Source: a virus
Lineage: Duplodnaviria; Heunggongvirae; Uroviricota; Caudoviricetes
DNA length: 4,239 nt
Direction: 5' to 3' (one strand)
Virus record (IMG/VR): IMGVR_UViG_648276671_000009
Location: 1-4,239 of that record
In this document: piece by piece, positions 2,641 through 4,239 of the stretch
Layout: each line of letters starts with the position of its first letter
Numbering within the stretch: the first letter of the stretch is position 1
Program-made: the position numbers and the translations under genes
Notes under the pieces: generated by a model
The model's database searches: none
Told to the model about the DNA's origin: nothing
The model's input: the letters and a program-made list of their open reading frames with translations, nothing else

Positions 2641-3018
2641 ATGTCGGGTAAATTCAGATTCAGCCGTCGTAGTGAAAAAAATCTGGAGGGCGTCAAACCA
2701 CAGCTGGTTGCTGTCGTTCGCCGTGCGCTGGAACTGTCGGAGGTTGATTTCGGTATTACGGAAGGCCTGCGCACGAAAGAACGCCAGAAGCAGCTGGTCG
2801 CGGAAGGGAAAAGCCAGACCATGAACAGCCGCCACCTGACCGGTGATGCGGTGGATGTTGTTGCCTGGGTTGGCAGTCAGGTGTCATGGGACTGGCCTCT
2901 GTACGAGAAAATCGCGCAGGCATTTAAGCAGGCTGCCGCAGAGCTGGGAACTGCCATCGAATGGGGCGGGGACTGGCGGACGCTTAAAGACGGCCCACAT
3001 TTTCAATTGAAGCGATAG
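2641..3018 (+). CDS. endolysin, peptidase M15 family (L-alanyl-D-glutamate endopeptidase, T5 Lys-like), 125 aa
   Basis: ATG 2641 with GAGGTG RBS. Zn-peptidase motifs SRHLTGDAVDV, WGGDW and DGPHFQL (His/Asp/His ligands). Lies immediately after two holin-like genes. Confidence 0.9.
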   Translation: MSGKFRFSRRSEKNLEGVKPQLVAVVRRALELSEVDFGITEGLRTKERQKQLVAEGKSQTMNSRHLTGDAVDVVAWVGSQVSWDWPLYEKIAQAFKQAAAELGTAIEWGGDWRTLKDGPHFQLKR

Positions 3019-3035
3019 CCTGCAAAACATACAGG

Positions 3036-3058
3036 GCCGCCATGAGCGGCTTTTTTAT
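3036..3058 (+). terminator. rho-independent terminator after the endolysin
   Basis: Stem GCCGC (3036-3040) / GCGGC (3046-3050), loop CATGA, then TTTTTTATT. Confidence 0.65.
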
Positions 3059-3088
3059 TGCTCAAAAAAAGAAAGAACGGAGGTACGT

Positions 3089-3370
3089 ATGTACGCACTG
3101 AAAAAAATCACGGTAACGGAAGATGGGCGTCAGGTTGAAGAAGTGCATGTTCTGGGGAATATGTATCGCCTGGAATTTTACCCGCGCAACACTCACCTTG
3201 CTGCCCGGGTGGAGTATTGCCGGGATGGAAATGTGCCATGCATTTCGGTGGAAAAAACGGATGAAGCCTACATCACCACGCTGGCGGGTGACACGGTGCG
3301 TTGTATCTGTCGCGGTAACAGTAAAGCCCGGGATGAAATAGCAAAATGTCGCAACACTACTGATAAATAA
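3089..3370 (+). CDS. hypothetical Cys-rich soluble protein, 93 aa
   Basis: ATG 3089 with GGAGG at 3079-3083 (5-nt spacing). Five Cys (44, 51, 72, 74, 87) including a C-x-C; no TM segment or signal peptide. Not recognised as Rz. Confidence 0.7.
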   Translation: MYALKKITVTEDGRQVEEVHVLGNMYRLEFYPRNTHLAARVEYCRDGNVPCISVEKTDEAYITTLAGDTVRCICRGNSKARDEIAKCRNTTDK

Positions 3371-3376
3371 AAAGTC

Positions 3377-3409
3377 AAAACCCCGGCTGGGGGAACAGTC
3401 CGGGGTTTT
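3377..3409 (+). terminator. strong, probably bidirectional, terminator
   Basis: Perfect 10-bp stem AAAACCCCGG (3377-3386) / CCGGGGTTTT (3400-3409) with a 13-nt loop; U-rich 3' arm on the + strand and a T-run also follows on the - strand. Confidence 0.7.
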
Positions 3410-3443
3410 GTGTATTCTGACCTTGAGTAAGGCAAGGAAGAAC

Positions 3444-3626
3444 ATGGAGAAGTATAAACGAATTCTGTTGAGGTTGACTATGAAAAACGGCCTTGAATTG
3501 AAAGCGCCTGTAACTGATGACATCAGCAGAGCGGTGGCTTTTGCTATTAAGTGGGTGGCGGTTGGCATCGCCGTGTCTCCGATGCTGTATGGGCTGGCAA
3601 AATTGATTGTTGCTCTGAAATCGTGA
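3444..3626 (+). CDS. small membrane protein with C-terminal TM helix, 60 aa (alternative start ATG 3480 gives 48 aa)
   Basis: ATG 3444 after AAGGAAG; the alternative ATG 3480 follows GAGG with 6-nt spacing. Hydrophobic C-terminus AVAFAIKWVAVGIAVSPMLYGLAKLIVAL. Stop TGA 3624-3626 is 8 nt before the next start. Confidence 0.5.
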   Translation: MEKYKRILLRLTMKNGLELKAPVTDDISRAVAFAIKWVAVGIAVSPMLYGLAKLIVALKS

Positions 3627-3634
3627 GTGGTGAT

Positions 3635-3817
3635 ATGACGCGAAAACACTGGACACACAGAATGCCGCGAACGGCGGCGAAATGGGCACTGGTAGCGATA
3701 CTGCTGCCTTTTTTATTGGTGGGGTGCGTCAGCCTGGATAAGGCGCGTCAGGTTATTCACATAGCAGAGCAGGTCTGCGAAATTGTCGACAGTGTCCGGC
3801 AGTGTATGCAGAACTGA
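3635..3817 (+). CDS. small predicted lipoprotein, 60 aa precursor with about 30-aa mature part (alternative start ATG 3662)
   Basis: Signal peptide with positive n-region, hydrophobic core WALVAILLPFL and lipobox LVGC; mature part CVSLDKARQVIHIAEQVCEIVDSVRQCMQN has 3 Cys and is not proline-rich, so unlike Rz1. Confidence 0.6.
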   Translation: MTRKHWTHRMPRTAAKWALVAILLPFLLVGCVSLDKARQVIHIAEQVCEIVDSVRQCMQN

Positions 3818-3829
3818 ACGCCTGTGAGC

Positions 3830-3889
3830 GCAGAATATTTTGCTGAAAAATGTCGGTGATTACGCTGTCCGGAAAGCATGAAATTCTGC
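3830..3889. repeat. imperfect 15-nt inverted repeat separated by about 30 nt (candidate operator or RNA stem-loop)
   Basis: GCAGAATATTTTGCT (3830-3844) pairs with AGCATGAAATTCTGC (3875-3889) at 13 of 15 positions. Confidence 0.4.
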
Positions 3890-3987
3890 ATTTGTGGTCA
3901 TTCAATAAAATAAATTCTTTCTGCTGCTGTAAATACACAAATGTGAACCGAACCCGGTGCGGCGACGGGCTTCGATATGAGGAGACG

Positions 3988-4239
3988 ATGATGGAAAAAA
4001 CAGAAAACAAACCGATTGTAATTGGTGCTGATGCTGCTCCGTTTAAGTTTGAGTTGTCTCAACTGGTGGAGATGCGCATCAGTGATGAATGGGGTGAGGT
4101 TAAAGCCCGCGCGCAGTATGCGGATGGCGAAAACCAGTACTTACTCCACTACAAAGCTGCTGATGGTCGCGCCACGACGGAGTGGTTTGGTGAGTCAATG
4201 CTGGAAGCAACAGAAGATGATGATCATCCGGGCTGGTCC
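3988..4239 (+). CDS. hypothetical acidic protein, N-terminal 84 aa (3' end outside window)
   Basis: ATGATG 3988-3993 preceded by GAGGAG; frame open to the window end. Begins MMEKTENKPIVIGADAAPFKFELSQLVEMRISDEWGEV. Absent from the track because no stop is reached. Not similar to lambda Nu1 as I recall it. Confidence 0.6.
   Translation, partial: MMEKTENKPIVIGADAAPFKFELSQLVEMRISDEWGEVKARAQYADGENQYLLHYKAADGRATTEWFGESMLEATEDDDHPGWS

Follow-up and report, generated by a model that had tools for sequence, protein, structure and literature searches.

A small gene of lambdoid prophage late regions that is accompanied by a covarying terminator-like hairpin

Results

Organization of the locus

The 4,239-nt stretch of DNA that was analysed (the window) covers the beginning of the late region in a phiP27/Stx2k-type lambdoid prophage. 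Among deposited phages, phiSTEC1575-Stx2k, phiP27 and 'Actinobacillus' phage pPE4 are nearest to it, and the best complete E. coli genomes reach only about 90% identity over the window. It carries tRNA genes (437-743), a TerB-like gene (1313-1738), a DUF3927/TciB-like gene (1735-1887), a Phage_holin_8 gene split by a frameshift (1979-2373), a Phage_holin_3_7 gene (2363-2638) and, on the plus strand, the gene for an M15 peptidase endolysin (2641-3018; PF13539, E 5.5e-12; phrog_465, E 2e-75). The ORF under study, which encodes 93 amino acids on the plus strand (3089-3370), follows. Further downstream lie a phrog_1115 gene encoding 60 aa with a C-terminal TM segment (3444-3626), a phrog_7528 gene for a 60-aa lipoprotein-like product with the lipobox LLVGC and three further cysteines (3635-3817) and, after 3817, the start only of a phrog_1935 gene. 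The phrog_1115 and phrog_7528 ORFs occupy the position expected for spanin genes and are unlike the canonical Rz/Rz1 pair.

Two features further upstream may be degenerate or damaged. ARAGORN placed a tRNA-Phe with the unusual anticodon AAA at 515-587, between tRNA-Met and tRNA-Thr, which was not reported by the Rfam tRNA model and is likely a degenerate tRNA-like remnant. The split in the Phage_holin_8 gene results from a 1-nt deletion near 2109 (ATGCC to ATCC) relative to the intact 130-aa homologues in three related loci (L001, L011, L014), and represents either the frameshifted first holin of a decaying prophage or a sequencing error.

The terminator scan found 15 terminator-like sites in the window, compared with 4.7 +/- 2.3 in shuffled sequences. 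Two of these hairpins are located 3' of the TerB/DUF3927 module (1893-1960), and the second of them (1939-1954, followed by T6) ends 18 nt ahead of the holin start at 1979. The holin gene thereby shows the same order of hairpin, T-run, Shine-Dalgarno sequence and ATG as the ORF at 3089-3370, so terminator punctuation is a trait of the whole late region and is not special to this ORF.

The ORF is a conserved coding gene of a narrow family

The ORF begins with the ATG at 3089-3091 and ends with the TAA at 3368-3370; its product has the N-terminus MYALK and contains the motif AYITTLxGDTVR. Read from the sequence, a GGAGG Shine-Dalgarno element at 3079-3083 on the plus strand is separated from the start codon by a 5-nt spacer (TACGT), and SD-like AGGA or GGAG sequences are retained in the upstream flanks of homologues. 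The first-pass annotation had described the ORF as strongly initiated, with this spacing, and as lying directly after the endolysin gene, and both descriptions were borne out.

The product matched phrog_33497 over its full length (E 3e-49; residues 1-91 on profile positions 1-93 of 95), and the homologues P0031, P0013 and P0066 from Proteus and Edwardsiella matched this family too. This orphan family in PHROGs v4 is the ORF's own family, from which it does not differ and which brings no functional information; as the first-pass annotation had recognised no family, its reading was right in this respect. A search of 5.8 billion clusters gave 52 homologues, all named hypothetical, with hosts in E. 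coli, Salmonella, Edwardsiella, Proteus, Providencia and Xenorhabdus, nearly all of them Enterobacterales prophages; one Aeromonadaceae MAG also has a phrog_33497 gene. The profile search of 1.84 billion representative proteins (1.84e9) gave just 21 clusters and no remote relatives beyond these. The gene is present in 184 of 5426 complete E. coli genomes (~3%), and literature searches found no paper treating it.

The ORF is a real coding gene under purifying selection. The dN/dS values relative to the window copy were 0.08-0.23 where dS exceeded 0.5, and among 30 distinct 93-codon copies the variable sites were distributed 27/23/65 over the three codon positions. Conservation in related prophages, on which the first-pass annotation had made its reading depend, extends over six genera.

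Predicted properties of the protein

The 93-aa product has a GRAVY of -0.57 and a maximum 19-residue Kyte-Doolittle value of 0.35, so it has no TM segment or signal peptide. Its cysteines are at positions 44, 51, 72, 74 and 87, with C72 and C74 forming the C-x-C motif. The earlier description of a soluble protein with five cysteines, including C-x-C, and no membrane anchor was therefore correct in every part. Proteins of phrog_33497 are 77-93 aa long, and the residues invariant over the family are M1, Y2, A3, L4, K5, E17, G23, Y61, G67, T69, R71 and R75.

An AF2 model built on the family alignment (pLDDT 90.1) has seven antiparallel strands in a meander followed by a C-terminal helix (78-90), the latter being specific to the E. 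coli clade and missing from homologues of 77-82 aa. The product is thus predicted to be a soluble cytoplasmic all-beta protein with a seven-strand antiparallel beta meander. No match was found in Pfam, NCBIfam or PADLOC scans, the profile search of PDB sequences returned noise only (ubiquitin and the RuBisCO small chain, E >= 0.0015 over short stretches), and no informative structural neighbour was found for the model. A marginal hit of one Proteus homologue to AbiEi (E 0.002 over 32 residues) was judged spurious. Homology and fold give no readable function for the product.

A terminator-like hairpin upstream of the gene is kept throughout the family

Terminator 1, identified by the terminator scan on the plus strand at 3033-3058, consists of the stem GCCGC (3036-3040) and GCGGC (3046-3050), extendable to 3033-3053, and a T6 run (3051-3056). 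A terminator at 3036-3058 had been proposed in the first-pass annotation, and a hairpin of this kind is present there. Taken alone its fold energy is unremarkable (-12.8 kcal/mol, z -1.2), with a short stem of 5 GC pairs. The element is nevertheless retained whatever sequence lies further 5': in each of the 43 distinct upstream flanks a GC-rich hairpin with a loop of four or five nucleotides, followed by a T5-7 run, stands 23-33 nt 5' of the ATG. In an alignment of 31 upstream hairpins 91.9% of cells were paired, and four of the six stem pairs showed compensatory double changes (GC to AU, GC to CG). The covariation score was reached by none of 500 shuffles, and slid registers paired far less.

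The motif G[GA][TC]C[GA]C-loop-G[CT]G[GA][TC]C-T4+ occurred 52 times just upstream and 16 times just downstream of the gene, and 10 times elsewhere in 778 kb, counting both strands. The upstream hairpin has stayed with the gene in no fewer than seven contexts and in six genera. As judged from sequence and its conservation, the upstream element has the features of an intrinsic terminator, namely a GC-rich stem, a short loop, a U-run and an evolutionarily kept structure. A covarying terminator that always accompanies its gene is a mildly interesting feature.

The downstream hairpin

Terminator 2 (3377-3409) is terminator-like on both strands and has perfect 10-bp arms, AAAACCCCGG at 3377-3386 and CCGGGGTTTT at 3400-3409, as had been noticed at first reading. 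Its fold energy is -24.2 kcal/mol (z -3.5) on the plus strand and -23.7 kcal/mol (z -4.2) on the minus strand. On the plus strand the stem, which is strong, is followed by only U4 and then GUGU; the minus-strand tail is longer, T-rich and better. A terminator-like hairpin was found 3' of the gene in 29 of the 49 distinct downstream flanks, and in the flanks without a downstream terminator either a holin gene follows directly (22 nt) or the hairpin lacks a T-run. The terminator 2 hairpin also precedes the phrog_1115 gene in one locus (L010) where the ORF is not adjacent, so it may close one module at its 3' end or open the following one at its 5' end.

Genomic contexts and mosaic boundaries

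Terminator 1, the Shine-Dalgarno element, the ORF and terminator 2 together make up a mosaic accessory cassette on the plus strand (3019-3409) that is delimited by homology breakpoints. Homology to phiP27 and pPE4 stops at 3012 and 3017, respectively, at the end of the endolysin gene, and resumes at 3647 and 3635. The phage phiSTEC1575-Stx2k remains homologous across the ORF up to exactly position 3409, where the second hairpin has its last T. Both phiP27 and pPE4 have the same holin-holin-M15 endolysin set without the ORF and carry other cargo in the slot. In phiP27 (L002) this is an unrelated stretch with an unannotated minus-strand ORF of ~85 aa (3570-3830), and in pPE4 it is a KilA-N gene with its own terminator ahead of it.

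The upstream neighbour of the gene was surveyed in genomes and viral contigs, at 95 loci that could be classified. It was an M15_4 endolysin gene in 29 loci, a phrog_4298 gene in 25, a gene for a Mu-F-like head-morphogenesis protein, with scaffold and capsid genes downstream, in 17, a GH108 endolysin gene in six, a Q antiterminator gene in four, and an M15_3 endolysin gene and a MetE-like gene in one each; the remaining 12 had other neighbours, including tRNA genes. Family genes were located before holin genes, behind Q or tRNA genes and within the head-gene module, and they were always co-oriented with the late genes. The head-module arrangement was seen in L085 (2811-6083) and in about 16 similar Proteus viral contigs, where the gene lies between the Mu-F-like head-morphogenesis gene and the scaffold and major capsid genes with the same type of hairpin on both sides. 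Since the neighbours vary and the holins and endolysins come from unrelated families, the gene behaves as a mobile accessory gene and not as a dedicated partner of the M15 endolysin.

Several recombinant joints were found inside hairpins or T-runs (L049, L010-12). The L010-12 loci retain just the left half of the hairpin that follows the gene, and upstream hairpins of the window type and of the L010 type have only the 3' arm in common. In L049 (about 3943-4003) the T-run of the cassette is fused to GCTGCCTTTTTTATTG within the lipoprotein gene; the partner of the T-run, GGTAGCGATACTGGTGCCTTTTTTATTG, is the signal-peptide coding part of that gene (window 3691-3712). This joint looks like recombination at terminator-like microhomology, which truncated the lipoprotein gene.

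The phrog_4298 gene (L011 3715-3921; also in L007, L010, L018, L022, L024, L026 and L028) was the immediate upstream neighbour at loci from five genera. Its product, a Cys/His-rich protein of 68 aa ending in GCYWCCxxCHTS in the surveyed neighbour and of 68-85 aa overall, has no Pfam match and is the truly Cys-rich protein of the neighbourhood. The gene is not in the window; it could be a partner gene of the ORF family.

Discussion

Probable expression by read-through

No sigma-70-like site was found between terminator 1 and the ATG (3019-3088) by a consensus scan covering sigma-70-like promoters. What lies 5' of the hairpin shows no relationship from one context to another, which leaves no conserved promoter to accompany the gene; with neither a promoter-like site 3' of terminator 1 nor anything conserved 5' of the hairpin, transcription would have to come from upstream. 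A pR'-like promoter directly 5' of the hairpin was considered in the Proteus context adjacent to Q (TTGGTA-N16-TATAAC) and rejected, as its -10 element is poor and ends in C, the scan did not list it and it is not conserved elsewhere. In related loci Q antiterminator genes are located upstream on the same strand. Q-modified RNA polymerase ignores intrinsic terminators in lambdoid late operons, as summarised for phi80 (PMC11364771). Given transcription from upstream only and a polymerase that passes terminators, expression of the gene should be absent from lysogens and set in late. The first-pass annotation had held that the gene can be expressed by read-through only; the architecture (no sigma-70-like site, the covarying hairpin, Q genes upstream) agrees with this, and expression solely by read-through of the upstream terminator is plausible on the strength of the DNA sequence.

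Hairpins of this kind are not peculiar to the prophages studied here, since the phi80 record JX871397 annotates putative late-operon terminators before the holin gene and after Rz. These resemble the ORF's hairpin in being GC hairpins with a T-run between late genes, on the late strand and about 20-40 nt upstream of a start codon. The ORF's hairpin differs in that it travels with one gene and shows compensatory changes.

A late accessory cassette as the preferred reading

We consider it probable, with some reserve, that 3019-3409 is a self-contained, moron-like cassette in a Q-dependent late operon, encoding a dispensable late accessory protein and shuffled at its hairpins. The cassette would have been inserted into the late operon of a phiP27/Stx2k-type lambdoid prophage as a unit with a hairpin always 23-33 nt 5' of the start, usually a second hairpin 3' of the gene, and no promoter. 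The gene would stay silent in the lysogen and be transcribed only when Q-modified polymerase passes the terminators late in lytic growth, and the flanking hairpins might double as joints at which the cassette is shuffled among late-operon slots. The protein would then be a dispensable late accessory factor, most likely binding another protein, and would belong neither to the holin-endolysin-spanin machinery nor to the metalloproteins. Four points count against this reading: the short stem of terminator 1, the tail of only U4 at terminator 2, the absence of a moron-type promoter, and the location next to lysis genes in about two thirds of the loci, with the close spacing to the holin gene in Providencia-type phages.

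The ORF at 3089-3370 thus looks like an ordinary accessory cassette gene, not metal-binding and not a fixed lysis component. If this is right, it adds to the uncharacterised accessory genes of the variable stretch in Stx-type lambdoid prophages, and its family is found also in Proteus, Providencia, Xenorhabdus and Edwardsiella prophages. It would also make a modest architectural point: a gene that brings its own upstream terminator into many contexts shows how the cargo of late operons can stay unexpressed in lysogens and be exchanged at terminator hairpins.

Possible involvement in lysis

From the position of the ORF the first-pass annotation had suggested an endolysin regulator or a lysis-timing factor. 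Small soluble cytoplasmic lysis regulators encoded with the lysis genes are known, such as T4 RIII and P1 LydB, and a cytoplasmic regulator of holin or endolysin timing of this type, co-expressed with the lysis cassette, has a small but appreciable probability here. In about two thirds of the loci the gene is beside lysis genes: it follows an endolysin gene in 36 of the 95 and the post-lysis phrog_4298 gene in 25, or lies just ahead of holin genes. In Providencia-type phages the stop codon is only 22 nt from the holin start, with no terminator between. Because of these contexts and the tight coupling to the Providencia holin, a lysis-related role stays a minority possibility.

Several observations oppose it. 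The neighbouring endolysins belong to unrelated families (M15_4, M15_3, GH108, GH24), as do the neighbouring holins (PF16931/PF05449, PF05106 and others). In the 17 head-module loci the gene lies between head-morphogenesis and scaffold/capsid genes, and phiP27 and pPE4 do without it despite having the same holins and endolysin. Moreover, the Q-to-holin and lysis-to-terminase intervals of lambdoid phages are generic hot spots for morons. The hallmarks of lysis components, that is, a TM segment (maximum 19-residue hydropathy as above), a signal or lipobox, or a muralytic domain in Pfam and NCBIfam scans, were not found in the product, nor was fixed synteny with one lysis gene family, the upstream contexts numbering at least seven and including head genes, Q and tRNA. 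The ORF shares with T4 RIII and P1 LydB a small soluble product encoded with lysis genes; it differs from them in having no detected homology to any annotated family, in not being linked to one holin family, and in occurring also outside lysis cassettes. With four endolysin classes, several holin types, non-lysis sites and absence from close phages, the positional argument for an endolysin regulator or lysis-timing factor was not supported.

A possible silenced effector

A more ambitious version of the cassette reading, which we regard as unlikely, is that terminator, Shine-Dalgarno element and MYALK gene form a dedicated antitermination-gated cassette, that the covarying hairpin has been selected to silence a host-directed effector strictly until Q acts, and that the hairpins are portable recombination joints by which the cassette moves between late-operon slots across genera. 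The silenced effector could be, for example, a counter-defence factor, a host-takeover factor or a lysis-timing factor working with any holin. If true, the gated cassette would establish 'promoter-less, terminator-first' late morons as a class, together with a new small beta-sheet effector fold.

[quoted passage not shown] The ORF resembles it in encoding a small soluble protein in the variable lysis-packaging stretch of a Q-controlled late operon. The two products show no sequence relationship (hhalign probability 0.08%), and the divergent tai immune gene that accompanies atiEcA is absent beside the ORF, where no credible adjacent minus-strand gene was found; homology to Ati counter-defence proteins was rejected on these grounds. 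A counter-defence role for the ORF product may be suggested by pure analogy with AtiEcA. Because it combines a confidently predicted fold with no informative neighbour, the product is a reasonable, low-priority target for screens of late accessory proteins (counter-defence, lysis timing).

Comparison with classical morons

The preferred reading calls the cassette moron-like, and the comparison has two sides. The moron concept is reportedly due to Juhala and Hendrix. Lambdoid examples include HK97 gp15 and the lambda genes bor and lom, and a classical moron has its own promoter. HK97 gp15 is cited in PMC11364771. Like lambdoid morons, the ORF is an extra gene between conserved late genes, patchy among close phages, bounded by a terminator-like hairpin and with mosaic edges; it is present or absent among close relatives with sharp boundaries and has a terminator-like hairpin downstream. 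Unlike them, its cassette has no detectable promoter of its own, and the conserved cis element is the upstream terminator. A conserved terminator upstream of the gene implies late-only expression rather than expression in the lysogen.

That the ORF is nevertheless a classical moron, a conversion or defence gene expressed in the lysogen from its own promoter, seems improbable. It would fit the patchy distribution (184 of 5426 complete E. coli genomes), the variable slot with a terminator-like hairpin downstream, and a GC content slightly lower than that of the neighbouring endolysin gene (0.49 versus 0.56). It fits poorly with the absence of a promoter-like site upstream of the ORF, with the lack of a conserved promoter accompanying the gene, and with a terminator as the conserved element directly upstream; for a defence gene, the window protein gave no PADLOC match and the AbiEi hit was marginal and confined to one Proteus homologue.

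Metal binding

The first-pass annotation had also offered a metal-binding late protein, and had proposed structure prediction as a way to look for a zinc-ribbon fold. A zinc-ribbon-like protein using its five cysteines is very improbable. Five cysteines in 93 aa, with a C-x-C, might suggest it, and the close E. coli clade retains every one of them. Over the whole family, no cysteine column is invariant and the cysteines do not co-occur as a set: C44, C51, C72 and C87 are confined to the E. coli clade and give way to other residues in members from Edwardsiella, Proteus, Xenorhabdus and Providencia, C74, the commonest, is Ser in many Proteus sequences, and the more distant members are without most of them. 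The idea fails because the cysteines are not conserved over the family. There are also no CxxC knuckles in the product and no zinc-ribbon match in Pfam or the PDB, and the AF2 fold is the seven-strand meander with a helix, not a zinc ribbon. Metal binding by the product is thus largely refuted.

Minus-strand features

That the frame is a chance ORF, or that the real gene is the 198-aa antisense ORF at 3062-3658, is hardly credible: all 30 distinct copies of the E. coli type keep the antisense frame open, which is expected in the exactly opposed register because the sense strand avoids TTA, CTA and TCA, and against it stand the sense dN/dS of 0.1-0.2, the concentration of variation at sense third positions, the conservation of the sense protein over six genera and the lack of any PHROG match to the antisense product, so that the substitution pattern and the absent family match rule out the antisense ORF as a real gene.

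Elsewhere on the minus strand, 3373-3459 gave a weak full-model alignment to the P22 sar antisense RNA (RF00262), mainly through the terminator hairpin; with 22.5 bits against a gathering score of 43 and a 26-nt insertion, it is not a member of that family. It is like P22 sar in that an RNA of this minus-strand stretch would lie antisense to the RBS of the next gene. A promoter-like site on the minus strand (3480 to 3451) was at chance level in the promoter scan, and conservation of its hexamers is uninformative because they overlap conserved codons. An RNA from this site would run opposite the RBS and the first codons of the gene at 3444 and would end at the 3377-3409 hairpin.
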